Of a DNA stretch of 64,000 nucleotides, positions 44,702 to 64,000 are shown in pieces; position 1 is the first letter of the stretch, and every line of letters starts with the position of its first letter. The notes below the pieces were generated by a model. That model searched no databases. It was not told where the DNA came from and saw nothing but the letters and a program-made list of their open reading frames with translations. Source of the stretch: Escherichia phage BP32; sequence record OR906198.1. One strand, written 5' to 3'. The translations under genes and the position numbers were made by a program.

Positions 44702-44702
44702 C

Positions 44703-45606: not shown

Positions 45607-45614
45607 TAATTCAA

Positions 45615-45638: not shown

Positions 45639-45648
45639 CATTTAAACG

Positions 45649-45678
45649 GTTTACTTTCCAAAATGAGTATGGTATAAT
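45649..45678 (+). promoter_or_regulatory. T4-type early promoter
   Basis: gtttactttccaaaatgagtatggtataat. Confidence 0.7.
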
Positions 45679-45704
45679 AGAATTATCTTATAGAGGAGAG
45701 CGCT

Positions 45705-46252: not shown

Positions 46253-46260
46253 GGAAAATT

Positions 46261-46746
46261 ATGGAAGCGATTTTGTTTGAAATGTATATTAGCAGTAATA
46301 GCATGTCGTTTGCTAAAGATGTTCCAATTACCGTAGCAGTAATGATTGATAAAAGATATGATAATAGCATGTATCTAGTAGAAGATTTTATTTCAATGCC
46401 AGTTCCAGAAGATGTTGAAATAAAACTTAAAAAGATCGGAATTATTGAAACTGTACGAAATTCTCCATTTATGTCAATTCAAGCATTTACTAAATCTAAC
46501 TATATTGATGTTGCTGAAGCATATTATAACAATAAACCGCTGCCATTATATTCATATGATTCAATATATGACTGGAAAATAGATAAGGGAAATAAATTTA
46601 TAATTACGGAAGAAAATGCGCTATCATATTTTATTACTTCTTTATGGAATAATTTAAATCCAAATTTGCTAAAAATTCATAAATTTGATGATGCTCCTAC
46701 TGTTGTTTTAGGTAAAATAAATGAAAGTTCTGAAGAAAATGTTTGA
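46261..46746 (+). CDS. hypothetical protein (161 aa)
   Basis: GAGGAAAA RBS. Confidence 0.55.
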
Positions 46747-46924
46747 ATGGTTCAGTAGACCAAACTCAATGTACATTGATGATGGTTGGGTTGAACAAGC
46801 AAATAAAGAAATGCAGAACGAATCGGAAGAATGGATGAAATCAATGATTAGTGCTGAGAAAGAAAAGAAATTAGAACGCTCAGCTCTTAAATTGATGAGA
46901 GACATCTATGGGGATAAATCATGA
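46721..46924 (+). CDS. hypothetical protein (67 aa)
   Basis: ORF track. Confidence 0.4.
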
Positions 46925-47085
46925 ACAGAGATATGACGTTAGAAGAGGCCAAGGCTAAAGCAAATGAAGCATTGGATTTGCTTCTTAAAATTGGCAGTAA
47001 AATGATGGAAGAAAATGAGAAATATATCCAGGAAAACAAAATTCTTGACGGTCCATTAGTAGGCAAAAGGAAATCACATGATTGA
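46921..47085 (+). CDS. hypothetical small protein (54 aa)
   Basis: ATGA overlap; GGGGA RBS. Confidence 0.4.
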
Positions 47086-47548
47086 AGTAGCAAAACATTA
47101 TTCAATAGAATTTATGTCTAAAGAAGGTAAATCAGTAAATACGCTTGACAAAAAGTGCTCATTAATTATTCCTTTGGCAGAAAATCCGGATATTTTAATT
47201 AAAGATATAAAAGAAAGAAAATATCCAGAAAATGTTATCCTAATTATAAAGCATACTGAAGATATTTTGCAGAATACTGATTCACCATTTTCTTCTTCTG
47301 AGGCTTTAACTATCAAAGGCTATAAAAGAGCTCATGAATATGGTCTTTTTAGCCTGTTTGAAGATGATAAGGTTAAATTAGCGAGTCAACCTTTTAAAAG
47401 TAAAACATTCATTATTGAAGATATTAAAGATATAAATGCATTTGTTAAGATGGTCTGGGCTCATTTTGATGTTGGACTACGCTGGAGAATGTCCGAAGAA
47501 GAAAGAAAGACTATTGAAACTAATCGTTATTTTGGTTTTTATCGCTAG
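47078..47548 (+). CDS. hypothetical protein (156 aa)
   Basis: AAGGAAA RBS. Confidence 0.55.
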
Positions 47549-47556
47549 GAATTAAT

Positions 47557-47739
47557 ATGGATTTATTTGAGATGTTAGAAGATAATCATTCTACGAATAT
47601 CCAGAATGATTCTAGTGATTATAAGAAAGAATACCGTATAGTATTACAGAATTATGGAATTGAAGCCCCAGATGCTCTTCTAGAAGAACTAGCTTCATAC
47701 CATCTTGACCCTCCGCCCTGGGCTCCCTGGGCAAAATAA
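47557..47739 (+). CDS. hypothetical acidic protein (60 aa)
   Basis: AGGA RBS. Confidence 0.5.
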   Translation: MDLFEMLEDNHSTNIQNDSSDYKKEYRIVLQNYGIEAPDALLEELASYHLDPPPWAPWAK

Positions 47740-47750
47740 TTCAAAAAGTT

Positions 47751-47780
47751 GTTTACTTTCCTTTCTAACGATGATATGAT
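47751..47780 (+). promoter_or_regulatory. T4-type early promoter
   Basis: gtttactttcctttctaacgatgatatgat. Confidence 0.55.
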
Positions 47781-47806
47781 AGCTTCTGAAGTATATGGAG
47801 GCTATC

Positions 47807-48430
47807 ATGATTATTAATCTTGCAGATGTTGAACAGTTATCTATAAAAGCTGAAAGCGTTGATTTTCAATATGATATGTATAAAAAGGTCTGTGAAAAAT
47901 TTACTGACTTTGAACAGTCAGTTCTTTGGCAATGTATGGAAGCCAAAAAGAATGAAGCTCTTCACCGGCAATTGAATAAAATCGTTAAAAAGCATTTAAC
48001 TAAATCACCTTATCAGCTATATCGTGGTATATCAAAATCGACAAAAGAGCTCATTAAAGATTTACAAGTCGGAGAAGTGTTTTCAACGAACAGAGTAGAT
48101 TCATTTACTACTAGTTTGCACACAGCATGTGGTTTTTCTTATGTTGAGTATTTCACTGAAATAATATTTCGCTTAAAAACTGATAAAGCTTTTAATTATT
48201 CTGACCATATCAGCGATATTATACTTTCTTCTCCTAATACTGAGTTTAAGTATACATATGAAGATACTGATGGATTAGATTCAGAACGTACTGATAACTT
48301 AATGATGATTGTGCGTGAACAAGAATGGATGATTCCAATTGGAAAGTATAAAATAACTTCTATTTCAAAAGAAAAATTACACGATTCATTTGGAACATTT
48401 AAAGTGTATGATATTGAGGTAGTTGAATGA
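47807..48430 (+). CDS. modB: ADP-ribosyltransferase (R-S-ExE type)
   Basis: 207 aa from ATG 47807 (GGAGG RBS); motifs R (LYRG), STS-like (FTTSLH), ExE (REQEWMIP). Confidence 0.75.
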   Translation: MIINLADVEQLSIKAESVDFQYDMYKKVCEKFTDFEQSVLWQCMEAKKNEALHRQLNKIVKKHLTKSPYQLYRGISKSTKELIKDLQVGEVFSTNRVDSFTTSLHTACGFSYVEYFTEIIFRLKTDKAFNYSDHISDIILSSPNTEFKYTYEDTDGLDSERTDNLMMIVREQEWMIPIGKYKITSISKEKLHDSFGTFKVYDIEVVE

Positions 48431-49029
48431 AATATTCAGCAATGCAATTAAAAGATTTTAAAATCAAATCAATGGATGCATCGGTGCGTGCTTCTATTCG
48501 TGAAGAATTACTTTCTGAAGGATTTAATTTATCTGAAATTGAACTTTTAATTCATTGTATTACTAATAAGCCAGACGATCATTCTTGGTTAAATGAAATA
48601 ATCAAATCTCGTTTGGTTCCAAACGATAAACCTCTTTGGAGAGGTGTTCCAGTTGAGACTAAGCAGGTGTTAAATCAAGGAATTGATATTATTACATTTG
48701 ATAAAGTAGTATCAGCTTCATATGATAAAAATATAGCTCTACATTTTGCTTCTGGATTAGAATACAACACACAAGTTATTTTTGAATTCAAAGCTCCTAT
48801 GGTATTTAATTTCCAGGAGTATGCTATAAAAGCTCTACGTTGTAAAGAATATAGTCCAAGTTTTAAGTTTCCAGATAGCCATCGCTATCGTAATATGGAA
48901 TTAGTTTCAGATGAACAAGAAGTAATGATACCAGCTGGAAGTGTATTTAGAATTGCGGATAGATATGAGTATAAAAAGTATTCAACATACACTATCTATA
49001 CTCTTGACTTTGAAGGATTTAATCTATAA
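48427..49029 (+). CDS. modA: ADP-ribosyltransferase (R-S-ExE type)
   Basis: 200 aa paralog of the preceding gene; motifs LWRG, SASY, DEQEVMIP. Confidence 0.75.
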   Translation: MKYSAMQLKDFKIKSMDASVRASIREELLSEGFNLSEIELLIHCITNKPDDHSWLNEIIKSRLVPNDKPLWRGVPVETKQVLNQGIDIITFDKVVSASYDKNIALHFASGLEYNTQVIFEFKAPMVFNFQEYAIKALRCKEYSPSFKFPDSHRYRNMELVSDEQEVMIPAGSVFRIADRYEYKKYSTYTIYTLDFEGFNL

Positions 49030-49084
49030 TGGAAGGACTTAGATTCATTATACCATGAAAGTTTTAAAGCATTTTCATAAAGTT

Positions 49085-49114
49085 GTTTACAAGCTGAAGT
49101 AAAAATGATATAGT
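49085..49114 (+). promoter_or_regulatory. T4-type early promoter
   Basis: gtttacaagctgaagtaaaaatgatatagt. Confidence 0.65.
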
Positions 49115-49144
49115 ATAAGTAGTTAACCCGTCCGTGAGAAAAAT

Positions 49145-49891
49145 ATGAAACTGACTAATAATCAAATTCGTAAAATTAAACGTCGTCTAGAGCATACTCA
49201 GGCATCTGCTAAAAGACGTTCTAAAGATTTTAACTTAGACTTTAATTACATTAAAAATATTTTAGATCAGAAAGTTTGCGCTTACTCGGGAGAACCTTTT
49301 GATAATCGTATTGAAGGAGAGAAATTATCATTAGAACGTTTTGATAATAACGTTGGATACATTAAAGGGAATGTTATTGCAGTAAAGAAAAAGTATAATA
49401 CATTTCGTTCTGATTATACTTTAGAAGAGTTGATTGAAAAGCGTGATTTATTTGCTTTGCGAATTGGTCGTTCATCTGCGAAAAAAGTTCATAAACTAAA
49501 TTTAGATGAAAAGAAATGGGCTAAAATCAAAAAGACTTATAATCAAATTAAATCTATACAGAAAAAACGTGAAAACCGAATTGAGCACATTTCTCAGCTT
49601 TCTAAATCAAAACAAACTTCTGACGTTAAGCTAACGATTATAGCACTTAAAGCTCGTATTGATGGTTCTCGTATAGCAGAAGGTGCTGAAGTTGTTAAAT
49701 TGAACGTTCTTCTTAAAGGCTCGGATTGGAAAACTGTGAAAAAGTTGTCAGAAGCAGAAATGCAATATGATATGTGTGATAAAATTATTCAAGGTATAGA
49801 GCGGTATCAAAACTTGTCTTTTATTGATAAACTTAAACTGAAAAGAGGATACCCGCTAAATTGTTCAATTTTTAAACTTATCCGAGGATAA
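49145..49891 (+). CDS. hypothetical basic protein (248 aa), Srd position
   Basis: position between modA and dda; identity not verified. Confidence 0.5.
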   Translation: MKLTNNQIRKIKRRLEHTQASAKRRSKDFNLDFNYIKNILDQKVCAYSGEPFDNRIEGEKLSLERFDNNVGYIKGNVIAVKKKYNTFRSDYTLEELIEKRDLFALRIGRSSAKKVHKLNLDEKKWAKIKKTYNQIKSIQKKRENRIEHISQLSKSKQTSDVKLTIIALKARIDGSRIAEGAEVVKLNVLLKGSDWKTVKKLSEAEMQYDMCDKIIQGIERYQNLSFIDKLKLKRGYPLNCSIFKLIRG

Positions 49892-49892
49892 T

Positions 49893-50204
49893 ATGTTTTA
49901 TGTATATGCGATAGTGTATAGAGATAAAGATGGATTTGCGGTGCCTGTTCCTCTTGATGAACATCGCCCTGCTGTATTTTTTGAAAGGGAGATTGCTGAT
50001 AAAGTATTTACAACTCTTAAAGAGCAGTATCAACTAGCTTTAGGTATGGGAATTCCGAGATTAGTTGAGACTCCACGTAAGTTTTGGTTTAATAAAATAG
50101 AAGTTAAACATGTTAAGCCTGATGTAGACACACAAAGATTATATCGGCGAATTTTAGATACTGGGCGTATTGTTAGTATACCAATTGCAGGGAATTTACG
50201 ATGA
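49893..50204 (+). CDS. hypothetical protein (dda.1 position, 103 aa)
   Basis: ORF track; directly upstream of dda. Confidence 0.55.
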   Translation: MFYVYAIVYRDKDGFAVPVPLDEHRPAVFFEREIADKVFTTLKEQYQLALGMGIPRLVETPRKFWFNKIEVKHVKPDVDTQRLYRRILDTGRIVSIPIAGNLR

Positions 50205-51520
50205 CATTTGATGATTTGACCGAAGGCCAGAAAAATGCCTTTAACATTGTTATGAGGGCTATTAAAGAAAAGAAACACCATGTAACTATTAATGGACCTG
50301 CTGGTACTGGTAAGACTACTCTTACTAAGTTCATCATTGAAGCTTTAATATCTACAGGCGAAACTGGAATTATTTTAGCAGCTCCTACACATGCAGCTAA
50401 AAAGATTCTTTCAAAACTATCGGGGAAAGAAGCGAGTACTATTCACAGTATTCTCAAAATTAACCCAGTAACATACGAAGAAAACGTTCTTTTTGAACAA
50501 AAAGAAGTACCGGATTTAGCTAAATGCAGGGTATTAATCTGCGACGAAGTGTCAATGTATGATAGAAAGCTATTTAAAATTCTGCTTTCAACTATCCCGC
50601 CGTGGTGTACTATAATTGGAATAGGCGATAATAAGCAAATTAGACCTGTTGACCCAGGAGAAAACACTGCTTATATCAGTCCGTTCTTTACGCACAAAGA
50701 CTTTTATCAGTGTGAACTCACCGAAGTTAAACGCAGTAATGCTCCTATTATTGATGTAGCTACTGATGTTCGTAACGGTAAGTGGATTTATGATAAAATT
50801 ATTGATGGGCATGGAGTACGTGGATTTACTGGTGATACCGCTTTACGCGATTTTATGGTAAATTATTTTTCAATCGTAAAATCACTAGATGATTTGTTTG
50901 AAAATCGTGTAATGGCATTTACGAATAAATCTGTTGATAAGTTGAATAGCATTATTCGCAAAAAGATTTTTGAAACCGATAAAGATTTTATCGTTGGTGA
51001 AATTATTGTAATGCAGGAACCATTAATTAAAACATATAAAATTGATGGAAAGCCTGTGTCAGAAATTATTTTTAATAACGGACAATTAGTTCGTATTATA
51101 GAAGCAGAGTATACATCAACATTTGTTAAAGCTCGTGGTGTTCCTGGAGAATATCTAATTCGTCATTGGGATTTAACAGTAGAAACTTACGGCGATGATG
51201 AATATTATCGTGAAAAGATTAAAATAATTTCATCTGATGAAGAGCTGTATAAGTTTAACTTATTTTTAGGTAAAACGGCAGAAACTTATAAAAATTGGAA
51301 TAAAGGCGGAAAAGCTCCGTGGAGCGATTTTTGGGATGCTAAATCACAGTTTAGTAAAGTGAAAGCACTTCCTGCGTCAACATTCCATAAAGCTCAGGGC
51401 ATGTCTGTAGATCGTGCTTTCATCTATACACCTTGTATTCATTATGCAGATGCTGAACTAGCACAGCAGCTTCTTTATGTTGGTGTAACACGTGGTCGTT
51501 ATGATGTGTTTTATGTATGA
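50201..51520 (+). CDS. dda: SF1 DNA helicase Dda
   Basis: 439 aa; Walker A GPAGTGKTT; Walker B ICDEVSM. Confidence 0.93.
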   Translation: MTFDDLTEGQKNAFNIVMRAIKEKKHHVTINGPAGTGKTTLTKFIIEALISTGETGIILAAPTHAAKKILSKLSGKEASTIHSILKINPVTYEENVLFEQKEVPDLAKCRVLICDEVSMYDRKLFKILLSTIPPWCTIIGIGDNKQIRPVDPGENTAYISPFFTHKDFYQCELTEVKRSNAPIIDVATDVRNGKWIYDKIIDGHGVRGFTGDTALRDFMVNYFSIVKSLDDLFENRVMAFTNKSVDKLNSIIRKKIFETDKDFIVGEIIVMQEPLIKTYKIDGKPVSEIIFNNGQLVRIIEAEYTSTFVKARGVPGEYLIRHWDLTVETYGDDEYYREKIKIISSDEELYKFNLFLGKTAETYKNWNKGGKAPWSDFWDAKSQFSKVKALPASTFHKAQGMSVDRAFIYTPCIHYADAELAQQLLYVGVTRGRYDVFYV

Positions 51521-51526
51521 TTAAAT

Positions 51527-51787
51527 TTGAGGAAGCTATTCGTGGAAATAACTAAAGACCAGTTTTATCTACTTCAAGATAAAGTGAGCGAAATATATGA
51601 AATAGCTTATAGTAAAAATCGCAAAAACGTGAAAATTGAATCAGGCAAGTTAATGCTTCAATTGGAAGAAATCGAACGAGATTTGATTGCGTTAGAATTC
51701 TTTTGCGGTGAAGTGAAAACTGTCACAATCAGTGATTATGTTTTAGGTGAAATTAGCCATCTTTATAAGGCGATTATTAATGATTGA
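51527..51787 (+). CDS. hypothetical protein (86 aa), paralog of next ORF
   Basis: similar LEEI..D...F motif to the downstream ORF. Confidence 0.5.
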   Translation: MRKLFVEITKDQFYLLQDKVSEIYEIAYSKNRKNVKIESGKLMLQLEEIERDLIALEFFCGEVKTVTISDYVLGEISHLYKAIIND

Positions 51788-52022
51788 ATTAAGTTTACAT
51801 CAGTTTAAATCTCTTATGACAAATGTTAAAGCTGTCATTGAGGAAAATCCAGGACCTGATAATGTTACTATTCGCGAAAAAGCTTCAAAGATAGTATACA
51901 GTCTTGAAGAGATACAAAAAGATATTGAATCTATGGCAAAATTTATTGATGAGCCCATTAATAAAGTTTATATCCAAGATTATACTGTAGGTCAAATTCG
52001 CGATTTAGCAAGGAAAATTTAA
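51780..52022 (+). CDS. hypothetical protein (80 aa), paralog of previous ORF
   Basis: AAGG RBS before ATG 51780. Confidence 0.5.
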   Translation: MIELSLHQFKSLMTNVKAVIEENPGPDNVTIREKASKIVYSLEEIQKDIESMAKFIDEPINKVYIQDYTVGQIRDLARKI

Positions 52023-52705
52023 TGTTTGATTTTATTATAGATTTTGAAACAATGGGAAGTGGTGAAAAGGCAGCTGTTATTGATTTGGCTGTTATTGCCT
52101 TTGACCCTAATCCAGAAGTAGTTGAAACATTCGATGAATTAGTTTCGCGCGGCATTAAAATCAAATTTGATTTAAAAAGTCAAAAAGGACATCGTCTTTT
52201 TACTAAAAGCACTATCGAATGGTGGAAAAATCAGTCTCCTGAAGCTCGAAAAAATATTGCACCGTCAGATGAAGATGTAAGCACTATCGATGGTATTGTA
52301 AAATTTAATGATTACATCAATGCACATAACATCGATCCTTGGAAATCTCAAGGCTGGTGCCGTGGAATGTCGTTTGATTTTCCAATTTTAGTCGATCTCA
52401 TTCGCGATATTCAACGTCTTAATGGCGTTTCTGAGAATGAACTTGACACATTTAAGTTAGAACCGTGTAAATTCTGGAATCAGCGTGATATTCGTACCAG
52501 AATTGAAGCACTTCTCCTTGTTCGTGATATGACCACGTGTCCTCTTCCAAAAGGAACTTTAGATGGATTCGTTGCACATGATTCTATTCATGACTGTGCG
52601 AAAGACATCCTGATGATGAAGTATGCTTTGCGATATGCTATGGGTCTTGAAGATGCTCCGTCAGAGGAAGAGTGCGATCCTCTATCTCTTCCAACAAAAC
52701 GATAA
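52022..52705 (+). CDS. dexA: exonuclease A (DnaQ-like 3-5 exonuclease)
   Basis: 227 aa; DFET motif; sequence recognised. Confidence 0.9.
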   Translation: MFDFIIDFETMGSGEKAAVIDLAVIAFDPNPEVVETFDELVSRGIKIKFDLKSQKGHRLFTKSTIEWWKNQSPEARKNIAPSDEDVSTIDGIVKFNDYINAHNIDPWKSQGWCRGMSFDFPILVDLIRDIQRLNGVSENELDTFKLEPCKFWNQRDIRTRIEALLLVRDMTTCPLPKGTLDGFVAHDSIHDCAKDILMMKYALRYAMGLEDAPSEEECDPLSLPTKR

Positions 52706-52711
52706 AAAGTT

Positions 52712-52741
52712 GTTTACTTCCTCGGTTAGTTGTGGTATTAT
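52712..52741 (+). promoter_or_regulatory. T4-type early promoter
   Basis: gtttacttcctcggttagttgtggtattat. Confidence 0.7.
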
Positions 52742-52768
52742 AACACCATAGCTACTGAGGATAATAAA

Positions 52769-53269
52769 ATGAAAATTTATCGTGTTGAATCATCTTTTAG
52801 TATTCTTAATTGTGAAGATGCTATAACAATACGTCGAAATCTTTGTGTTCAAATAACGCCATACAGGAGTATAATAGATTCATGGAGCGAAGAGTGGTTA
52901 TTACACGTAGGTTATGACAGACCTAATTTTATGCATCATAGCGATGATAATAAAAGAATTCCTTTACCACACGAAGATAAACTATTAGTTAAAAACGCTA
53001 ATATAGTAATTAATACTAAGTTCAAGAAAGATTATGTTGGAGTAGAATATCATATTCCAGGATGGTTTATAGCTCTTTATCATTTTGCTTTCGCTAGTGA
53101 ATATGATATGATGAGATGGTTCACACGAGAAGAGCGGGAAGAATTATCTTCTAAAGGATTTTATCTCGCTGTATACGAAGTTTCTGAAGATGAAGTTATC
53201 ATTGGCGGGCACCAAGTAATGTTCCGCAAATCGCATGCTGAACTCATAGATTTTATTGAAATGAGATAA
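52769..53269 (+). CDS. hypothetical protein (166 aa; motB.2 position)
   Basis: GAGGA RBS. Confidence 0.55.
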   Translation: MKIYRVESSFSILNCEDAITIRRNLCVQITPYRSIIDSWSEEWLLHVGYDRPNFMHHSDDNKRIPLPHEDKLLVKNANIVINTKFKKDYVGVEYHIPGWFIALYHFAFASEYDMMRWFTREEREELSSKGFYLAVYEVSEDEVIIGGHQVMFRKSHAELIDFIEMR

Positions 53270-53271
53270 TT

Positions 53272-53814
53272 ATGAAATTTAATTATAATCCTGAATACAT
53301 ACCAAATCCGGTAGCTAAACTGATTGATTTTGATGTTGTAAGCACTTATGTATGCCCTGTTAAACCACTGGAAATTAAGGAACCTACTATGACTACCGCT
53401 ATTGAAATCGGCAAAACCTACAAACTGGTTGAACCTGAAATTAAAACTAATGCCTTGATTTCCGGCCATAAAACTCTGACTGATGTTTTTGGCGAAGGCG
53501 AATTTACTGTTGAAGACTTTGAAAAAAGTAAATGGTTTACTAAATCTTATATTGTACACGGTCGTCGTTTAGACAATAACAAAATAGAGAAAATCCTGGT
53601 TTATGAAGCAGAGTTCATCCTGTTCCAAGAAGTTGAAGAACAAGACCCTACAGACCTTCTAACTCGTGCGGTAGCTATCAAGACTCCATTTATTTCAGTC
53701 TGTGGTTGGGTAACAGACCAGTGGATTGAAGATGGTGTTGAACTTCTGAACGTTGTTCATGCAGGTGATTTTAGTGTAGTACCTCGTAGTGCGGTGGTAG
53801 CTATTTTGAATTAA
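53272..53814 (+). CDS. MotB-like paralog (180 aa)
   Basis: C-terminal VTDQWIEDGVELLNVV resembles ITDQWVEDGVKLYNVV of the next gene. Confidence 0.55.
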   Translation: MKFNYNPEYIPNPVAKLIDFDVVSTYVCPVKPLEIKEPTMTTAIEIGKTYKLVEPEIKTNALISGHKTLTDVFGEGEFTVEDFEKSKWFTKSYIVHGRRLDNNKIEKILVYEAEFILFQEVEEQDPTDLLTRAVAIKTPFISVCGWVTDQWIEDGVELLNVVHAGDFSVVPRSAVVAILN

Positions 53815-53816
53815 TA

Positions 53817-53846
53817 GTTTACAAACTCTTGGGACCAGAGTATAAT
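53817..53846 (+). promoter_or_regulatory. T4-type early promoter with inverted repeat around the -10
   Basis: gtttac...tataat; ggacc/ggtcc flank the -10. Confidence 0.65.
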
Positions 53847-53890
53847 GGTCCTGTGGAGTATAAAATCTTTTTAACAAGTGAGAGATAACT

Positions 53891-54379
53891 ATGATTATTA
53901 ATATTGGTGAAATTGCTCGTGTATCTGATAAATCCCGTTCTAAAGCAGCAGGAAAATTGGTTGAAATTGTAAGCATTCAGCTTAAACGTGGTGTTAAAGA
54001 CGAAGATTCTGAAGTAAAAGTGCGTATCATTCCTAAAGATGGAAAGTCTAAACCTCAGTTTGGCTATGTTCGTGCGAAATTTCTTGAATCTGCGTTTTTG
54101 AAAGCTGTTCCTGCTAAAGGAATTGAAACGATTGATACTTCGCATGTAGGTGTAGACTTTAAGTGGAAACTCGGTCAGGCTATTAAGTTCATTGCTCCCT
54201 GTGAATTTAAATTTATCAAAGATGATGGTGTGGCTGTTTATACTCGCGCTATGTGCGCATACATTACCGATCAGTGGGTAGAAGACGGTGTTAAGCTGTA
54301 TAATGTGGTATTTTTAGGAACATACAAAGTCATTCCTGAAAGCTGGATTAAACACTATAGCAAAGCTCTCTATGCATAA
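53891..54379 (+). CDS. motB: MotB (modifier of transcription)
   Basis: 162 aa as recalled for T4 MotB; position between dexA and the gene 39 region. Confidence 0.6.
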   Translation: MIINIGEIARVSDKSRSKAAGKLVEIVSIQLKRGVKDEDSEVKVRIIPKDGKSKPQFGYVRAKFLESAFLKAVPAKGIETIDTSHVGVDFKWKLGQAIKFIAPCEFKFIKDDGVAVYTRAMCAYITDQWVEDGVKLYNVVFLGTYKVIPESWIKHYSKALYA

Positions 54380-54404
54380 AGTTTAAAATTTTTTCATAAA
54401 ACTA

Positions 54405-54433
54405 TATACATCAGTAGTTGATTATGGTACTAT
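54405..54433 (+). promoter_or_regulatory. early-promoter-like element inside an 11 bp perfect inverted repeat
   Basis: cagtagttgat-tatggtactatatcaat-atcaactactg; -35 is the variant TATACA. Confidence 0.5.
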
Positions 54434-54476
54434 ATCAATATCAACTACTGATACAGAAAACAACTTGGAGAATAAA

Positions 54477-54746
54477 ATGGAAAACTTAATTATCATCGAA
54501 CAATCTTTCAACGATTATGGTATGGCTTACGGTTATCGTGCGATAATGGAAGATTCTCGTGGATGTGTTATCGATATTGCTGAATGTAAAGATTTACTGC
54601 AGCTTTTGAAGATTGTTCGTAAAAATTGGGATTGTGAAAACATTAAAGTTCGTGTTGTAACGGAAGAAGAAACTGTTTTTCATGATGTAAAATTTGCCAA
54701 AGGTGCTGCTACTATTCTGAAACGCATCGCTCCACTGTTCAATTAA
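54477..54746 (+). CDS. hypothetical protein (89 aa)
   Basis: GGAGA RBS. Confidence 0.55.
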   Translation: MENLIIIEQSFNDYGMAYGYRAIMEDSRGCVIDIAECKDLLQLLKIVRKNWDCENIKVRVVTEEETVFHDVKFAKGAATILKRIAPLFN

Positions 54747-54759
54747 TGAGGAAATTGTA

Positions 54760-54975
54760 ATGAAACGTAAAACTGTTCAGAATTGCACTAATGACGAATT
54801 TGAAGATGTATTATTTGATCCAGATTTGGTAGTGGTTCAAAAGGAACATACTGTTAAGTTTACTCACTTGACTTCGGTTTATGTGTATGAAAAGGTTGGT
54901 GATAAACAACCAATTTACGGTGTATTTCGTGAAATTACTGAAGATGGCACAACTTACTGGAAGGAAATTTATTAA
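54760..54975 (+). CDS. hypothetical protein (71 aa; Cef position)
   Basis: GAGGAAA RBS; size matches my recollection of T4 Cef; not verified. Confidence 0.45.
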
Positions 54976-55394
54976 TGGCTATTAAATTTGAAGTTAATAA
55001 ATGGTATCAATTTAAAAATAAACAAGCTCAAGAAAATTTTATTAAAGACCATACTGATAACGGAATCTATGCACGACGTTTAGGTATAGAACCTTTTAAA
55101 ATTTTAGATGTTGACTATTACGGGCGTCCTACTAAAATTGTGACATCTACTGGCACAATTGGATATTCAACATGTGGTACAGTCATTGACGAAAACTTTA
55201 TCTGGCTCTCTACTAACGAAGCTGAGTTCTTTGATGAAGTTGAAAATCCATACCAGGCTGCTGAAGAACAAGAGCAGGAAGAGCAAGAACAAATAGAAGA
55301 TTTCACAGAATTCCCGGTAATGAAAGTTACTATTGAAAATAATGAACAGGCATGGTCCTTGTATCAGATGTTGAAAGCACACTTTAAGGAATAA
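54975..55394 (+). CDS. hypothetical protein with acidic EQ-repeat (139 aa; GoF position)
   Basis: ATG overlaps upstream stop; [10 protein letters not shown] low-complexity segment. Confidence 0.5.
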
Positions 55395-55396
55395 TT

Positions 55397-55573
55397 ATGC
55401 CAATGTATGATTATAAATGCCAATCCGAAGATTGTGGGCATGAATATGAAAAAATTAAAAAGATTTCTGAACGAGAAAATGATGTTTGCCCTAAATGTCA
55501 TCGTTTGTCTACTCGTCGGCCTTCTGCTCCTAAGCATGTGAATGGTGGATTTTACGACTTACTTAAAGGGTAA
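55397..55573 (+). CDS. small zinc-ribbon protein (58 aa)
   Basis: two CxxC pairs (CQSEDCG ... CPKC); AAGGA RBS. Confidence 0.45.
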   Translation: MPMYDYKCQSEDCGHEYEKIKKISERENDVCPKCHRLSTRRPSAPKHVNGGFYDLLKG

Positions 55574-55575
55574 TT

Positions 55576-55947
55576 ATGTTTAAAATCGGTAAGAAATATC
55601 GTGTTCGCGAAGGTGAAGAAAAGAAATATCTACTTTCTTCTATTTATAGGAATAGTTCTATTAATACTGTAATATCTACAAGCGAATTTATCGTTGAAGA
55701 TATGAAAGGTCATAATGTTACAATGATTAGTACAGCATCTGGAAATGATGGAAAAATTCTTCACAGCTTTCAGAGTAATGTTCTAATTTATGATGAAGAA
55801 TTTGACTTCTTCGAAGAAGTTACAGAAGATTTTGATTTTGGATGCACCATCACTATGAAATCTGGTGACCCTCTTTCATTTACGGTTAAAGATGAAAGAA
55901 GTCGCTTGAGAATTATTAGTCTTCTTCAAGCCATTAAATTTGAGTGA
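55576..55947 (+). CDS. hypothetical protein (123 aa)
   Basis: ORF track. Confidence 0.55.
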   Translation: MFKIGKKYRVREGEEKKYLLSSIYRNSSINTVISTSEFIVEDMKGHNVTMISTASGNDGKILHSFQSNVLIYDEEFDFFEEVTEDFDFGCTITMKSGDPLSFTVKDERSRLRIISLLQAIKFE

Positions 55948-55951
55948 AATT

Positions 55952-56212
55952 ATGAAATATGTTAATCGTTCTATCGCGGCATTAGTATTAGCAGTATCTT
56001 TAGTAGGATGTACTGATGCTGATAATGCAACCAAAGTTTTGTCTTCAAGTGGGTTTACTAATATTGAAATCACTGGATACAATTGGTTTGGTTGCTCTGA
56101 AAATGATTTCCAACACACTGGATTTCGTGCTATTGGACCTACTGGGCAGAAAGTAGAAGGAACCGTGTGTTCTGGTCTATTCTTCAAGGATTCGACTATC
56201 CGTTTTAAATAA
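55952..56212 (+). CDS. predicted lipoprotein (86 aa)
   Basis: signal peptide with lipobox LVGC. Confidence 0.55.
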   Translation: MKYVNRSIAALVLAVSLVGCTDADNATKVLSSSGFTNIEITGYNWFGCSENDFQHTGFRAIGPTGQKVEGTVCSGLFFKDSTIRFK

Positions 56213-56229
56213 AAGGCCTTCGGGCCTTT
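56213..56229 (+). terminator. terminator-like hairpin (GCCTTCGGGC)
   Basis: aaggcc-ttcg-ggcctt followed by ttt. Confidence 0.55.
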
Positions 56230-56281
56230 AGCTTTATGATTACTGGAGTATAATATTCCCGAAACCAAACGAGGATAAGTG

Positions 56282-58099
56282 ATGATTAAGAATGAAATTA
56301 AAATTCTGAGCGATATTGAACATATCAAAAAGCGTAGCGGCATGTACATTGGCTCTTCCGCTAATGAAATGCATGAGCGCTTTCTGTTTGGTAAATGGGA
56401 AAGTGTTCAGTATGTACCTGGTCTTGTTAAGCTTATTGATGAAATTATTGATAACTCAGTAGATGAAGGTATTCGTACTAAGTTTAAATTCGCAAATAAA
56501 ATTAATGTTACTATCAAAAACAATCAAGTAACAGTTGAAGATAACGGTCGTGGTATTCCACAAGCGATGGTTAAAACACCTACTGGTGAAGAAATTCCTG
56601 GTCCAGTTGCTGCCTGGACTATTCCAAAAGCAGGTGGTAACTTTGGTGATGATAAAGAACGCGTCACCGGTGGTATGAATGGTGTTGGTTCTAGTTTAAC
56701 TAACATTTTTTCTGTGATGTTTGTCGGTGAAACCGGCGATGGTCAAAATAATATTGTAGTTCGTTGTTCAAATGGCATGGAAAATAAATCGTGGGAAACT
56801 ATTCCTGGAAAATGGAAAGGAACTCGCGTTACTTTCATTCCCGATTTTATGTCATTTGAAACTAATGAGCTATCTCAGGTTTATCTTGACATTACACTAG
56901 ATCGTCTCCAGACACTTGCGGTAGTTTATCCTGATATTCAATTTACCTTTAACGGTAAAAAGGTTCAGGGTAATTTTAAGAAATATGCACGCCAATATGA
57001 TGAACACGCTATCGTTCAAGAACAAGAAAATTGTTCTATTGCGGTTGGTCGTTCACCTGATGGTTTTCGTCAATTAACATACGTCAATAACATTCATACT
57101 AAGAATGGTGGCCATCACATTGACTGCGTTATGGATGATATTTGTGAAGACCTTATTCCACAAATCAAACGTAAATTCAAAATTGATGTAACTAAAGCAC
57201 GTGTCAAAGAATGTTTGACTATCGTTATGTTTGTTCGTGATATGAAAAACATGCGATTTGATTCTCAAACTAAAGAGCGTCTGACTTCTCCATTTGGTGA
57301 AATCCGTAGTCATATTCAGCTTGATGCTAAAAAGATTTCACGTGCTATTTTGAATAATGAAGCAATTTTAATGCCAATCATTGAAGCTGCCTTGGCTCGT
57401 AAATTGGCGGCAGAAAAAGCAGCAGAAACTAAAGCAGCTAAAAAGGCCTCTAAAGCTAAGGTTCATAAACACATTAAAGCGAATCTTTGCGGTAAAGATG
57501 CTGACACTACTCTTTTCTTGACTGAGGGTGATTCTGCTATCGGATATCTTATTGATGTTCGTGATAAAGAACTTCATGGTGGTTATCCATTACGCGGTAA
57601 AGTTCTTAACAGCTGGGGTATGTCATATGCTGATATGCTTAAAAACAAAGAACTGTTTGATATTTGCGCAATCACTGGATTAGTTCTTGGCGAAAAAGCT
57701 GAAAACTTGAATTATCATAATATTGCTATTATGACCGATGCTGATCATGATGGTCTAGGAAGCATTTATCCTTCTCTGCTCGGATTTTTTAGTAATTGGC
57801 CAGAACTGTTTGAACAAGGAAGAATTCGCTTTGTCAAAACTCCTGTAATCATCGCTCAGGTCGGTAAAAAACAAGAATGGTTTTATACAGTCGCTGAATA
57901 TGAGAGTGCCAAAGATGCTCTACCTAAACATAGCATCCGTTATATTAAGGGGCTTGGCTCTTTGGAAAAATCTGAATATCGCGAGATGATTCAAAACCCA
58001 GTATATGATGTTGTTAAACTTCCTGAGAATTGGAAAGAGCTTTTTGAAATGCTCATGGGAGATAATGCTGACCTTCGTAAAGAATGGATGAGCCAGTAG
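56282..58099 (+). CDS. 39: DNA topoisomerase II large (GyrB-like) subunit, uninterrupted
   Basis: 605 aa; ATPase and Toprim domains (TDADHDG); C-terminal region matches what T4 encodes separately as gp60. Confidence 0.95.
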   Translation: MIKNEIKILSDIEHIKKRSGMYIGSSANEMHERFLFGKWESVQYVPGLVKLIDEIIDNSVDEGIRTKFKFANKINVTIKNNQVTVEDNGRGIPQAMVKTPTGEEIPGPVAAWTIPKAGGNFGDDKERVTGGMNGVGSSLTNIFSVMFVGETGDGQNNIVVRCSNGMENKSWETIPGKWKGTRVTFIPDFMSFETNELSQVYLDITLDRLQTLAVVYPDIQFTFNGKKVQGNFKKYARQYDEHAIVQEQENCSIAVGRSPDGFRQLTYVNNIHTKNGGHHIDCVMDDICEDLIPQIKRKFKIDVTKARVKECLTIVMFVRDMKNMRFDSQTKERLTSPFGEIRSHIQLDAKKISRAILNNEAILMPIIEAALARKLAAEKAAETKAAKKASKAKVHKHIKANLCGKDADTTLFLTEGDSAIGYLIDVRDKELHGGYPLRGKVLNSWGMSYADMLKNKELFDICAITGLVLGEKAENLNYHNIAIMTDADHDGLGSIYPSLLGFFSNWPELFEQGRIRFVKTPVIIAQVGKKQEWFYTVAEYESAKDALPKHSIRYIKGLGSLEKSEYREMIQNPVYDVVKLPENWKELFEMLMGDNADLRKEWMSQ

Positions 58100-58128
58100 T
58101 TTACTTTACCACAAGGATGTGGTATAAT
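58099..58128 (+). promoter_or_regulatory. T4-type early promoter
   Basis: gtttactttaccacaaggatgtggtataat; one mismatch from the copy at 12896. Confidence 0.7.
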
Positions 58129-58153
58129 TAATTGGGCAAATGAGGATATTGAA

Positions 58154-58357
58154 ATGAAATCATATAGAGTAAATTTAGAACTTTTTGATAAAGCAGTTCA
58201 TCGAGAATATAGAATCATTCAACGCTTTTTCGATATGGGAGAAGCCGAAGAGTTTAAAAACCGCTTTAAGGATATTAGAGATAAAATTCAATCTGACACC
58301 GCAACTAAAGATGAACTACTAGAAGTTGCTGAAGTTATTAAACGCAATATGAATTAA
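58154..58357 (+). CDS. hypothetical protein (rIIA.1 position, 67 aa)
   Basis: GAGGA RBS. Confidence 0.55.
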
Positions 58358-58367
58358 TGAGGAAATT

Positions 58368-60545
58368 ATGATTATCACCACTGAAAAAGAAACAATTCTT
58401 GGTAATGGTTCTAAATCAAAAGCATTTAGCATCACAGCATCTCCTAAAGTATTTAAAATTCTATCATCTGATTTGTACACAAACAAGATTCGCGCAGTAG
58501 TCCGTGAATTGATTACCAACATGATTGATGCCCATGCTCTTAATGGAAATCCTGAAAAATTTATCATACAAGTTCCAGGACGATTAGATCCGCGATTTGT
58601 TTGTCGAGATTTTGGTCCGGGTATGAGCGATTTTGATATTCAGGGTGATGATAATTCTCCTGGGTTGTATAATTCATACTTCAGTTCATCTAAGGCTGAA
58701 TCCAACGATTTCATTGGCGGATTTGGTTTAGGTTCTAAATCTCCGTTTAGTTATACTGATACATTTAGTATTACTTCGTACCATAAAGGTGAAATTCGCG
58801 GTTATGTAGCTTACATGGATGGTGACGGTCCGCAAATTAAACCTACATTCGTAAAAGAAATGGGTCCAAATGATAAAACTGGTATTGAAATCGTAGTTCC
58901 AGTTGAAGAAAAAGATTTTAGAAACTTTGCTTATGAAGTTTCTTATATCATGCGACCATTCAAAGATTTAGCTATCATTAACGGTCTTGACCGCGAAATT
59001 GATTATTTTCCGGATTTTGATGACTATTACGGTGTAAATCCAGAAAGATACTGGCCAGATCGTGGTGGATTGTATGCTATCTATGGCGGCATTGTTTATC
59101 CTATCGAAGGTGTTATTAGAGATCGTAACTGGTTAAGCATCCGCAATGAAGTGAATTATATTAAGTTTCCAATGGGTTCACTTGATATTGCTCCATCGCG
59201 TGAGGCTCTTTCACTAGATGATCGTACTCGTAAAAATATTATTGAGCGTGTTAAAGAGCTCAGTGAGAAGGCATTTAATGAAGATGTAAAACGATTTAAA
59301 GAATCTACATCTCCTCGTCATACATACCGTGAATTGATGAAGATGGGATATTCTGCTCGAGATTATATGATTAGCAATTCGGTCAAATTCACGACTAAAA
59401 ATCTGTCATATAAAAAGATGCAAAGCATGTTTGAACCTGACAGTAAGTTATGTAATGCAGGAGTTGTGTATGAAGTAAATCTTGACCCTCGACTGAAACG
59501 CATTAAGCAAAGCCATGAAACTTCAGCCGTTGCATCAAGTTATCGTCTGTTTGGTATTAACACAACAAAAATTAATATCGTTATTGATAATATTAAAAAC
59601 CGCGTTAATATTGTCCGTGGATTAGCACGTGCATTAGATGATAGCGAATTTAATAACACCTTAAATATTCATCACAATGAGCGTCTTCTGTTTATTAATC
59701 CGGAAGTAGAATCACAGATTGATTTACTCCCTGATATTATGGCAATGTTTGAAAGTGATGAAGTTAACATTCATTATTTGTCAGAAATTGAAGCTTTAGT
59801 TAAAAGTTATATTCCAAAGGCAGTAAAAAGTACAGCTCCTCGTCCTAAAACTGCCACTGCATTTAAGTTTGAAATTAAAGACGGGCGTTGGGAAAAAGAG
59901 GAATTGTTTACGCTCACATCAGAAGCAGATGAAATTACTGGTTATGTAGCATACATGCATCGTTCTGATATTTTCTCTATGGATGGTACTACATCGCTTT
60001 GTCATCCATCTACGAATATTTTGATTCGTATGGCTAATCTTATTGGCATTAATGAATTTTATGTTATTCGTCCGCTTTTGCAGAAAAAGGTAAAAGAACT
60101 TGGTCAGTGCCAATGTATTTTTGAAACTTTGCGTGATTTATATGTAGATGCTTTTGATGATGTAGATTATGATAAGTATGTAGGTTATTCAAGTTCAGCT
60201 AAACGATATATTGATAAAATTATTAAGTATCCTGAACTAGATTTTATGATGAAGTACTTCAGTGTAGATGAAGTTTCTGAAGAATATACACGACTCGCTA
60301 ATATGGTTAGTTCATTACAGGGTGTATATTTCAACGGTGGAAAAGATACCATCGGTCATGACATCTGGACAGTAACTAATCTTTTTGATGTATTATCAAA
60401 TAATGCTTCAAAAAACAGTGATAAAATGGTTGCTGAGTTTACCAAGAAATTCCGTATTGTTTCCGACTTCATCGGTTATCGCAACTCTTTAAGTGATGAT
60501 GAAGTTTCCCAAATCGCTAAAACTATGAAGGCCCTTGCGGCCTAA
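58368..60545 (+). CDS. rIIA: rIIA membrane-associated protein
   Basis: 725 aa; GyrB/Hsp90-like ATPase N-terminus; sequence recognised. Confidence 0.95.
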
Positions 60546-60556
60546 TAAGGAAAATT

Positions 60557-61495
60557 ATGTACAATATTAAATGCCTGACCAAAAACGAACAAGCTGAAAT
60601 TGTCAAACTGTATTCAAGTGGTAATTATACCCAGCAGGAATTGGCTGATTGGCAAGGTGTATCGGTTGACACAATCCGTCGTGTTTTGAAAAATGCTGAA
60701 GAAGTTGAGCGCTCCAAAGTTACCATTAGCGGTGACATTACAGTTGAAGTTAAGAGTGATGTAGCTATTGCTCCAGTTGCTAAATCTGACATTATTTGGA
60801 ATGCATCTAAAAAATTCATTTCAATTACTGTTGATGGCGTAACTTATAACGCAACTCCTAATACTCATTCAAACTTCCAGGAAATTCTTAATCTGCTTGT
60901 TGCAGATAAATTGGAAGAAGCGGCACAAAAAATTAATGTTCGTCGCGCTGTTGAAAAATATATTTCCGGTGATGTTCGAATTGAAGGTGGAAGCCTGTTC
61001 TATCAAAATATTGAATTGCGGTCTGGTTTAGTTGATCGTATTCTTGATTCGATGGAAAAAGGTGAAAACTTTGAATTTTATTTTCCGTTCTTGGAAAATC
61101 TGCTGGAAAACCCAAGCCAAAAAGCAGTATCTCGACTCTTTGATTTCTTGGTAGCAAACGATATTGAAATTACAGAAGACGGCTACTTCTATGCTTGGAA
61201 AGTAGTTCGCAGCAATTACTTTGACTGTCACTCAAATACCTTTGATAACAGTCCTGGTAAAGTAGTTAAAATGCCACGTACTCGTGTGAATGACGATGAT
61301 ACACAAACTTGTTCTCGTGGTCTGCATGTGTGTTCTAAATCTTATATTCGTCACTTTGGCAGTTCAACCAGCCGAGTTGTAAAAGTTAAAGTACATCCTC
61401 GCGATGTAGTATCAATTCCAATTGATTACAACGATGCTAAAATGCGTACCTGCCAATACGAAGTAGTTGAAGACGTTACTGAACAATTTAAATAA
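60557..61495 (+). CDS. rIIB: rIIB protein
   Basis: 312 aa immediately downstream of rIIA. Confidence 0.9.
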   Translation: MYNIKCLTKNEQAEIVKLYSSGNYTQQELADWQGVSVDTIRRVLKNAEEVERSKVTISGDITVEVKSDVAIAPVAKSDIIWNASKKFISITVDGVTYNATPNTHSNFQEILNLLVADKLEEAAQKINVRRAVEKYISGDVRIEGGSLFYQNIELRSGLVDRILDSMEKGENFEFYFPFLENLLENPSQKAVSRLFDFLVANDIEITEDGYFYAWKVVRSNYFDCHSNTFDNSPGKVVKMPRTRVNDDDTQTCSRGLHVCSKSYIRHFGSSTSRVVKVKVHPRDVVSIPIDYNDAKMRTCQYEVVEDVTEQFK

Positions 61496-61508
61496 GGGCT
61501 TCGGCCCT
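61496..61508 (+). promoter_or_regulatory. GCTTCGGC hairpin without T-run (RNA stability or processing element)
   Basis: gggc-ttcg-gccc right after the rIIB stop. Confidence 0.35.
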
Positions 61509-61523
61509 TAACTAAGGAAAATT

Positions 61524-61718
61524 ATGTTAGGTTATCAAGCACGAGTAAAAGAAGAATACGATCAATTAATGCTCAAAATTAATGCACTGAGCAAATTTTT
61601 AGAAAGCACAAAGTTTCTAACTATTAATGAAGTTGAACAAGAATTGCTGCTTTCACAGTTTATCTCAATGAAATCTTACGCAGATTGTTTAGAGAAAAGA
61701 ATTGCACAATTCAAATAA
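61524..61718 (+). CDS. hypothetical protein (64 aa)
   Basis: AAGGAAA RBS. Confidence 0.5.
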   Translation: MLGYQARVKEEYDQLMLKINALSKFLESTKFLTINEVEQELLLSQFISMKSYADCLEKRIAQFK

Positions 61719-61720
61719 TT

Positions 61721-61740
61721 AAGGGGCTTCGGCCCTTTTG
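61721..61740 (+). terminator. rho-independent terminator (GCTTCGGC hairpin)
   Basis: ggggc-ttcg-gccc followed by tttt. Confidence 0.65.
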
Positions 61741-61754
61741 TTTTAAGGAAAATT

Positions 61755-62081
61755 ATGATTTATTGTATGAATATCGGTGATTCCGACATAAAAGAAATTT
61801 CTCTACACGGTAATCATCACGCTAATATTGTGTACTGCAATAAATTCGAGTTTGGACATGAAAAACTTGGAGTTCTTTACTGCAATGATGTTATAGTCAT
61901 GGATAAAAAGAATCTCGATGAACTTGATCGTAATTCTTTAGATGAAAATGATCGAATTTATTATGGTACTCTTAAAGTATATAACGCTTATCTTAGTGGT
62001 AAAAAGGAAAGTCTAAATGCAGAAAACGAATCCAGGTTTACAGAGACTATTTCAGATTCCGACATTTACCCTATCGAATAG
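61755..62081 (+). CDS. hypothetical protein (108 aa)
   Basis: AAGGAAA RBS. Confidence 0.55.
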   Translation: MIYCMNIGDSDIKEISLHGNHHANIVYCNKFEFGHEKLGVLYCNDVIVMDKKNLDELDRNSLDENDRIYYGTLKVYNAYLSGKKESLNAENESRFTETISDSDIYPIE

Positions 62082-62574
62082 TGACTTGACTAGTGAAATG
62101 AAGGTCAAAATTGCTGATACAGCAAGATACTCTTTAAAACAAAACCCGAACCAGGATAAAGCAGAAGTTATCGAAAGATGCCGTATCGCTGTGTACGCAG
62201 AGTTTTTTGTAGCAGATTGGCTAAGCGGGTATGTCAACAAAGGCCAAGAGGATGTTAATGATCCGTATACATACGCATGGGATGTATTGGCACATCCAAA
62301 ATACTGCGGGCTTCGTGTAGAAGTTAAGACACATCAAACTGACTCACGTTGGATTTCGGTAACAACAGGATGCAGCGGAGAGTATCCATACGGTTCTGGA
62401 ATAAATCTAGGGCCCATTCTGAATCATCAAGTCGCTGACTGTATAATTATATTCAACACTAAAGAAATTCATCCAGGTGTCATCCAGTACACTCCGAAGT
62501 TCATCGGTGATAGAGAAGACCTTCGTAAGGTTGTAAGAAAAAGCAACTACAACGGATGGTATCTTTCTATTTAA
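62017..62574 (+). CDS. denB: endonuclease IV (cytosine-DNA-specific), assigned by position and size
   Basis: 185 aa as recalled for T4 DenB; located downstream of rIIB; start overlaps upstream ORF by 65 nt. Confidence 0.55.
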   Translation: MQKTNPGLQRLFQIPTFTLSNSDLTSEMKVKIADTARYSLKQNPNQDKAEVIERCRIAVYAEFFVADWLSGYVNKGQEDVNDPYTYAWDVLAHPKYCGLRVEVKTHQTDSRWISVTTGCSGEYPYGSGINLGPILNHQVADCIIIFNTKEIHPGVIQYTPKFIGDREDLRKVVRKSNYNGWYLSI

Positions 62575-62591
62575 AAAATTTTCACAAAACA

Positions 62592-62621
62592 GTTTACATA
62601 CCACAAGGACCGTGGTACTAT
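62592..62621 (+). promoter_or_regulatory. T4-type early promoter with conserved leader
   Basis: gtttacataccacaaggaccgtggtactat. Confidence 0.65.
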
Positions 62622-62648
62622 ACAACTATCAGCTACGGAGGAGTAAAA

Positions 62649-62912
62649 ATGAAATTTAAATTTTATTACGCTAAACATAAAATAACTGATGAGTTTGTGT
62701 CAGTTGAATATTCTAGCGACGATGAAGGTATGATTTATACTCGCTTGGGACTATCGCATTGGGAGTCTGATACGCCTTATTTTTCAACTCCCGAAGAAAT
62801 TACACGCTTAGTTAATGGTCATATGAATGACCACTGGAATGTAATTCTTTCAGATAGTCTTAAAGCGGCTATTAATAGTAATGAAATGAAAATCGCTGAG
62901 ATTGAACTATGA
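62649..62912 (+). CDS. hypothetical protein (87 aa)
   Basis: GGAGGAG RBS. Confidence 0.55.
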   Translation: MKFKFYYAKHKITDEFVSVEYSSDDEGMIYTRLGLSHWESDTPYFSTPEEITRLVNGHMNDHWNVILSDSLKAAINSNEMKIAEIEL

Positions 62913-63097
62913 GTTCATTGTGGTGGTGTTTCGTTTGGTTAATTAGTATTCCATTAATTTGTTTAACATTTACTTTTATGATGAGGTTATTATGAAAATT
63001 TTAAATTCTGTACTTATTGCTTGTGCGTGGTGGGTTGCGCAAGTTTCGGCAGTAGTGATTGGTATTCACATTTATTACGAATATTTTTAAAAAAGTT

Positions 63098-63127
63098 GTT
63101 TACAAGACTGTTCCTCTGTGGTATTAT
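63098..63127 (+). promoter_or_regulatory. T4-type early promoter with conserved leader
   Basis: near-identical copy of 9916-9976. Confidence 0.65.
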
Positions 63128-63154
63128 TACCCTATCAACTACGGAGGAACAGAA

Positions 63155-63268
63155 ATGAAAAAGATTGTTAAAGCTATATGGAATGTAGTTATAATACTAG
63201 TAGTTTTGAGTATATTCCCAATCGTTTTAATGATTGATGTATTAAACGCTTACTTTGGATTTATATGA
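63155..63268 (+). CDS. tiny membrane peptide (37 aa)
   Basis: GGAGG RBS; hydrophobic. Confidence 0.4.
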   Translation: MKKIVKAIWNVVIILVVLSIFPIVLMIDVLNAYFGFI

Positions 63269-63275
63269 GGAAAAT

Positions 63276-63473
63276 ATGAAGCGTAAACGCAGTGCTTTTA
63301 CATTTATTGAATGGTTTTTCGATAATATTTTTCCAGCTTTATTCATTTTCATGCTGATTTTCGCCTTAGGTTCAGTTGTAGTTGGAATCTATTTGATGGC
63401 AGTTGTCGGAATGGATATTCACCAAAATGGTTTGAAATCTGTGGTTGAAACAATTTGGAATGGTGTAAAATGA
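63276..63473 (+). CDS. small membrane protein (65 aa)
   Basis: GAGGAAAA RBS; 2 TM helices. Confidence 0.5.
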   Translation: MKRKRSAFTFIEWFFDNIFPALFIFMLIFALGSVVVGIYLMAVVGMDIHQNGLKSVVETIWNGVK

Positions 63474-63588
63474 TGAATTTGCTGAGCGGTTGGTTTTATA
63501 TTCTCATGTTTTACATTGGCGCAAATTTCCCATATTGGATGGGATGGTCAACAACTGCATTTGGATTTTATACTCCTTGAGGTGAATT

Positions 63589-63804
63589 ATGAAAATTTTT
63601 AAAGATGTAAAAGTTGGTGAAATTTTCTGTTTAGATAATGGTGATCAGTTAATTCGTATTTCGCCTCTTAAGAGCACCAGCGAGAAAATGACAGTTAATG
63701 CTACTTTAGCAAATAACAGTAATGAACGTTTCTGTATTGAAAATGATACTGAAACTTATACTGTAGAAGAGTTTTGGGAATTGAGCGTCGACTGCGACGA
63801 TTAA
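63589..63804 (+). CDS. hypothetical protein (71 aa)
   Basis: GAGGTGA RBS. Confidence 0.55.
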   Translation: MKIFKDVKVGEIFCLDNGDQLIRISPLKSTSEKMTVNATLANNSNERFCIENDTETYTVEEFWELSVDCDD

Positions 63805-63863
63805 TTTATCGGCCGTGTGTATTCATGCGGCCTTGGAGTAGAAAATAATTAGAGGAAATTAAA

Positions 63864-64000
63864 ATGAAATATATGACTGTTACTGATCTGAATAATGCAG
63901 GTGCTACTGTTATTGGTACAATCAAGGGCGGTGAATGGGTTTTTGGAACTCCGCATAAAGACATTTTGTCTAAACCTGGATTTTACTTTTTAGTGAGCAA
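63864..64000 (+). CDS. ndd: nucleoid disruption protein, 3-prime truncated at window edge
   Basis: N-terminus [25 protein letters not shown] recognised; AGAGGAAA RBS. Confidence 0.85.

Follow-up and report, generated by a model that had tools for sequence, protein, structure and literature searches.

The window, that is, the whole stretch of 64,000 nucleotides analysed here, belongs to a T-even phage of the genus Tequatrovirus. Around gene 39, the genes run in the order 39.2, a 123-aa ORF, 39.1, 39, rIIA.1, rIIA and rIIB, as in T6. The product of rIIA.1 matched the Pfam family T4_RIIA1 (E 2e-33), and rIIA and rIIB encode proteins of 725 and 312 aa, respectively. Gene 52 begins ~3.2 kb past the end of rIIB in T6 and, by synteny, lies beyond position 64000 here. 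The 2.4 kb around gene 39 had matches in 537 phage records, mostly with 95–99% identity. For the last 25 kb of the window, the best matches (phages GEP001 and LYE-01) reached ~97%, and no record of the searched collection is therefore identical to this phage.

In the ORF listing of the window, the frame assigned to gene 39 appears on the + strand at 56279..58099, with 606 aa and a GTG start. This GTG was dropped in favour of the ATG at 56282, located one codon downstream and giving a product of 605 aa, on the basis of the Shine-Dalgarno spacing and of the match to the start used by T4, T2 and T6. The ATG begins 6 nt after a GAGGA sequence (56271-56275), and gp39 of the three phages has the same start (MIKNEIK...). 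The original prediction of a continuous 605-aa frame with these limits was confirmed, and the peptide that it quoted, TDADHDGLGSIYPSLLGFFSNWPELFEQGRIRFVK...KEWMSQ, was found in the ORF. On the opposite strand the ORFs do not exceed 79 aa, and a run of 605 stop-free codons at ~35% G+C would be far beyond chance. The protein matched phrog_543 of the PHROG collection with E 1.6e-295. The coordinates of the gene and its features are collected in Table 1.

Table 1. Gene 39 of the window, its motifs and flanking signals, and the segments aligned with T4
Feature	Position in window	Strand	Description
Upstream expression signals	56227..56275	+	TATAAT (56250-56255) after AGCTTTA; GAGGA (56271-56275); read from the sequence
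Gene 39, unsplit T2/T6 type	56282..58099 (stop codon included)	+	605-aa large (GyrB-like) subunit of the phage type IIA topoisomerase
GHKL ATPase motifs	56441..56695	+	N-box EIIDNSVDE, residues 54-62; G1 DNGRGIP, 87-93; G2 GGMNGVGSS, 130-138
QTK loop of the transducer domain	57263..57283	+	SQTKERL, residues 328-334
Toprim core	57521..57754	+	TEGDSA, residues 414-419 (conserved Glu), to TDADHDG, 485-491; domain split in T4
Intact 64-nt parental segment	57700..57763	+	Replaced by the MobA element in T4 and RB55; reported to hold the T2 MobA nick site
Homologue of the T4 take-off/landing site	57752..57757	+	Gly491 GGT followed directly by Leu492 CTA; no UAG, no 50-nt gap
Segment aligned with T4 5661-3911	55950-57699		94.5% DNA identity (blastn)
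Segment aligned with T4 2899-2854	57708-57753		78% DNA identity (blastn)
Segment aligned with T4 2793-2057	57764-58500		98.0% DNA identity (blastn)

The domains follow one another along this single chain. Pfam HATPase_c covers residues 47–149 (E 1.9e-09, above cut-off), DNA_gyraseB covers residues 250–384 (E 1.5e-13), and TOPRIM_C covers residues 519–604. The acidic cluster DADHD (DxD) occupies residues 486–490, within the stretch DADHDGLGS, which begins at residue 486 (nt 57737). The Toprim model itself was not reported in the Pfam scan of the protein; the region is identical to the Toprim of the solved T6 enzyme. The presence of the GHKL, transducer and Toprim plus tail regions places the product among the B-type subunits of type IIA topoisomerases (GyrB/ParE/gp39). 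With the GyrB/ParE equivalog models it scored 234 bits against a cut-off of 740, and gp39 is thus considered a distinct phage subfamily. One 605-aa chain carries the GHKL ATPase, the transducer, the whole Toprim domain and the C-terminal tail, with no need for recoding. It would dimerise and pair with gp52, the GyrA-like cleavage subunit, in an A2B2 ATP-dependent type IIA topoisomerase and, judging by homology to the solved T6 enzyme, this enzyme would relax DNA during phage replication.

Upstream of the gene, the AGCTTTA that precedes the TATAAT resembles a MotA box, and the two may form a putative promoter; a simple sigma-70 scan of the window did not list the TATAAT site. Right after the 39.1 stop codon, adjoining these signals, lies a hairpin (GGCCTTCGGGCC, ~56214-56225, +) with a perfect GGCC-UUCG-GGCC tetraloop, ~25 nt upstream of the TATAAT. 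Placed between 39.1 and 39, it could act in termination or in RNA stability; a simple terminator scan did not list it (the T-run of 5 is absent).

The two small ORFs that precede gene 39 deserve a separate description. The gp39.1 homologue (55952..56212, +) has 86 aa, as in T6, and shows a lipoprotein-like signal (…AALVLAVSLVGC, lipobox-like LVGC). The T4 reference annotation of 39.1 has only 65 aa and would lack this N-terminus. In T6, gp39.1 is annotated as an XRE regulator, a role for which the sequence gives no hint; Pfam, PADLOC and NCBIfam returned no match for the homologue, and only phrog_902 was hit. The 123-aa ORF between 39.2 and 39.1 (55576..55947, +) belongs to phrog_622, of unknown function, with a weak goF-like N-terminus (E 6e-07). 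T6 has it at 4600-4971, but in T4 the two blastn segments adjoin each other and the ORF is missing.

The alignment with T4 showed that the ORF covers two T4 proteins. Residues 1–473 correspond to T4 gp39 1–473 with 98% identity, and residues 472–605 to T4 gp60 27–160 with 96% identity, both without gaps (blastp). The T4 split falls within the Toprim domain, and the bypass comes directly after the DxDxD-G motif. The insertion point is located after Ala473, which ends at 57700, and the blastn breakpoints against both T4 and RB55 are 57699/57700 and 57763/57764. Gly491 occupies 57752-57754, and the next 9 nt (CTA GGA AGC) end at 57763. Between 3911 and 2899, T4 presents ~1 kb with no counterpart in the window, which consists of the tail of gene 39 (43 codons), the mobA pseudogene, 60.1 and the beginning of gene 60 (30 codons); in addition, T4 carries the further 50 nt. 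In RB55, the element encoding an intact 272-aa MobA has 1106 nt (1516-2621 of the compared RB55 segment) and replaces 57700-57763 of the window. No extra DNA was found between 57699 and 57764 of the window in the alignments with T4 and RB55. The MobA element has not entered this allele, and its 64-nt target segment is therefore intact. This segment differs from T2 at 2/64 positions and is 78% identical to homR, the copy that the element itself carries.

At the position of the bypass, the multiple alignment gave GAT GGT CTA GGA AGC for the window, T2 and T6. The T4 codons are GAT GGA, then the gap (TAGCCTTCGGGCTATC...ATTGGA), then TTA GGT TCT, and the 50 nt are missing from the other three sequences exactly at the T4 bypass. 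Alignment with T4 genes 39 and 60 and with gene 39 of T2 and T6 revealed no stop, frameshift or insertion in the window. No match to a 24-nt pattern drawn from the start of the T4 gap, comprising the take-off GGA, the UAG and the stem-loop, was obtained in the 64 kb with up to 3 mismatches. The RNA fold around the site showed no stable take-off hairpin (MFE -8.9 kcal/mol, z +1.33); the T4 sequence at the same site folds into the known one. A tblastn search of the 64-kb window with the intact MobA of RB55 returned a best E of 0.79, with no homologue or remnant.

The absence of the bypass and of the endonuclease insertion, both of them proposed in the original prediction, was thus borne out. The locus has a single collinear ORF of ~605 codons and a parental segment in the 55–75 nt range, as in the unsplit T2/T6 form (parental Topo2L). 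It lacks the features of the T4-type split 39/60 arrangement with its MobA-bypass cassette, namely the ORF of the HNH endonuclease MobA (intact or as a remnant) with the two extensions, and the 50-nt gap with its take-off GGA, adjacent UAG, stem-loop and landing GGA. Then, the ORF is almost certainly the Tequatrovirus gene 39 in its unsplit parental Topo2L form, free of the MobA element and translated conventionally, and none of the results obtained speaks against this reading.

The frame could seem continuous and still be a pseudogene or a chimera created by assembly, but nothing was found in favour of this explanation, and it is effectively refuted by the comparison with other phages. The genes 39 of the window, T2 and T6 all have 1818 nt, and the catalytic motifs are all intact. 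Relative to T6 there are 79 nucleotide differences, 78 synonymous and one non-synonymous, which correspond to dS 0.238, dN 0.0007 and dN/dS ~0.003. With this 78:1 ratio, the frame is under intense purifying selection and the gene is clearly functional. The same junction is also contiguous in 984 phage records, as revealed by a 181-nt probe (57640-57820) in which the insertion point and the bypass point are both included. With this probe, the joining limit does not reach the length of the insert, which was the reason for its choice; a record was considered contiguous when at least 80% of the probe matched in one place.

In all, the probe matched 1042 phage records, and among the contiguous ones (984/1042) there are distant T4-like phages with Klebsiella and Acinetobacter as hosts. 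The T4 cassette was present in only 43 records. Thus, the unsplit gene 39 is the rule and T4 is the exception. Another count, in which 495 of the 537 records matching the 2.4 kb region had at least 80% coverage, was rejected as a frequency of the unsplit form, since pieces up to 1.7 kb apart were joined in it and T4-type genomes were possibly counted. That gene 39 is unsplit in T2 and T6 was already known in the 1980s–90s.

Work from 2011 reportedly established the MobA/bypass cassette as a mobile insertion; the primary paper on MobA homing is that of Bonocora et al. (2011). The published element has 1097–1106 nt and deletes 64 nt of the parental gene, and the homR that it carries is only 67–81% identical to the parental sequence (bioRxiv 10.1101/2022.08.31.505936). 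Its 5′ insertion point was placed at residues 466–473 and its 3′ end just past G491, with 9 additional nt in clade 1 (bioRxiv 10.1101/2022.08.31.505936). The breakpoints and sizes measured here reproduce this anatomy (bioRxiv 10.1101/2022.08.31.505936, section 6). When T2 is the partner in a mixed infection, MobA reportedly transfers to it both the split and the 50-nt gap, and the gap then protects the gene from further nicking (bioRxiv 10.1101/2022.08.31.505936; also PMC2988022). By analogy with what was reported for T2, the allele of the window would be expected to serve as a MobA homing substrate in a mixed infection.

It may be asked whether the gene has stayed unsplit through resistance to MobA, with substitutions in the target or other features of the phage making it a poor nicking substrate. 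Within the 64-nt segment, the window has ACC and GAT where T2 and T6 have ACT and GAC, and such an escape could be sought in these two synonymous differences. However, the far more divergent polymorphisms of homR reportedly did not block nicking, which was blocked only by the 50-nt insert (bioRxiv 10.1101/2022.08.31.505936). Two silent changes are therefore unlikely to protect the site, and we regard resistance as a highly improbable reason for the unsplit state. If true, this would be a natural case in which a target site has escaped its free-standing homing endonuclease.

As for the direction of change, the homing endonuclease has been described as entering gene 39 in an ancestor of T4 (PMC5009743), and the unsplit gene has been termed ancestral (bioRxiv 10.1101/2022.08.31.505936; PMC5009743). 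This polarity agrees with the unbroken Toprim of the cellular and eukaryotic relatives and with the predominance of the unsplit form among T4-like phages. The original prediction had also regarded the arrangement as ancestral, a claim supported by the literature, by the collinearity with GyrB/ParE and topoisomerase II, and by that same predominance. The identity to T4 is 98.0% on the 3′ side of the MobA site (57764..58500) and 94.5% on the 5′ side (55950..57699), which indicates that gene 39 is a recombinational mosaic relative to T4. This mosaicism could also be expected if the lineage had once possessed the MobA/bypass cassette and regained the unsplit gene by recombination with a cassette-free phage or by precise loss, so that the arrangement would be derived. 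T-even phages recombine freely, and a survey includes cassette-bearing and cassette-free genomes that are 96–99% identical within Topo2L (bioRxiv 10.1101/2022.08.31.505936). On the other hand, no remnants of the C-terminal or N-terminal extensions were found at the insertion site, and the 64-nt segment is of the parental type, with far more similarity to T2 than to homR. Secondary restoration is then considered quite improbable. A naive allele that replaced the gene would produce the very same state, so restored and unbroken inheritance are indistinguishable by this route, and the present anatomy is the same in either case.

The phage is not devoid of mobile endonuclease genes. Between a-gt and gene 47, an ORF of 207 aa (25255..25878, +) contains a GIY-YIG motif, for which Pfam gave E 9e-4, slightly short of the cut-off. 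The ORF runs at its end into gene 47, which starts at 25856, and T6 has no counterpart there, as seen by a gap in the blastn map. This ORF looks like a free-standing endonuclease of the seg homing type, so mobile endonuclease genes are present in this phage even though MobA is missing. In the Rfam and tRNA scans of the window (1..64000) nothing reached the threshold, and the nrdD region thus has no group I intron of the T4 kind (I-TevII).

Another ORF, of 186 aa (43362..43922, +), ends exactly at the start of dam (43922..44701; Pfam MethyltransfD12, E 1e-50). It showed a weak match to the core of DpnII-type (GATC) restriction endonucleases (PADLOC REase_II, E 4.8e-05); with Pfam DpnII the match was below the cut-off (E 0.002) and restricted to profile positions 152–233 of 278, and neither PDB nor NCBIfam gave a match. 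A total of 163 phage records, that of T2 among them, contain the ORF, almost always under a hypothetical label; in some T4-type phages, no more than its last 28 codons are left. As to its origin, it might be what is left of the restriction-modification system from which the phage dam derives, or a miniature nuclease of that system.

Taken together, these results support an adjustment of the original prediction in weight only: the unsplit gene is a common and already described state, and not a notable one. In fact, an unsplit gene 39 is ordinary, and full descriptions of it exist for T2, T6 and many more T4-like phages. The value of the locus is limited to that of another cassette-free reference allele, which bears out to the nucleotide the published boundaries of the element (1106 nt in exchange for 64 nt, and 9 nt more beyond the landing codon). 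The gene is also an example of how very strongly purifying selection acts on gp39.

In comparison with T4, the enzyme is the same over the shared parts: its catalytic motifs do not differ, and in both phages the gene is flanked by 39.1 and rIIA.1. However, T4 gp39 has a C-terminal extension of 43 aa and gp60 an N-terminal extension of 30 aa, and both are absent from the window, as are the ~1.0-kb element, the homR that takes the place of the 64 parental nt, and the 50-nt gap together with the take-off hairpin. The T2 gene 39 (AP018813 2447-4264) encodes 605 aa, 603 of them identical, with differences at F70L and T173D. T2 is the recipient used experimentally for MobA homing, and it shares the parental 64-nt segment and the synteny from 39.2 and 39.1 to 39, rIIA.1, rIIA and rIIB, but its small ORF upstream of 39.1 is different.

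The phage enzyme relaxes DNA and is not known to supercoil it. The closest solved relative is T6 gp39 (YP_010067157.1; PDB 8ylu, chain 8ylu_C, and related entries), also with 605 aa, which differs only at Q526H and shares the domain order and the gene neighbourhood, including the 123-aa ORF between 39.2 and 39.1. The nucleotide identity between the two genes is only 95.65%, with nearly all differences synonymous, and the phage is therefore a different Tequatrovirus and not T6. Structures, assays and relaxation activity of the T6 topoisomerase have been published, and the phage topoisomerase has no GyrA C-terminal domain (PMC11461880). From the 604/605 identity, ATP-dependent relaxation would be the predicted activity of the enzyme described here. 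Beyond phages, cellular GyrB/ParE are collinear with gp39 from end to end (query 4-604 against positions 13-630 of the GyrB model), and human TOP2A/B 10-603, the N-terminal half of eukaryotic topoisomerase II, is also collinear with it; in both groups, the Toprim domain is unbroken.
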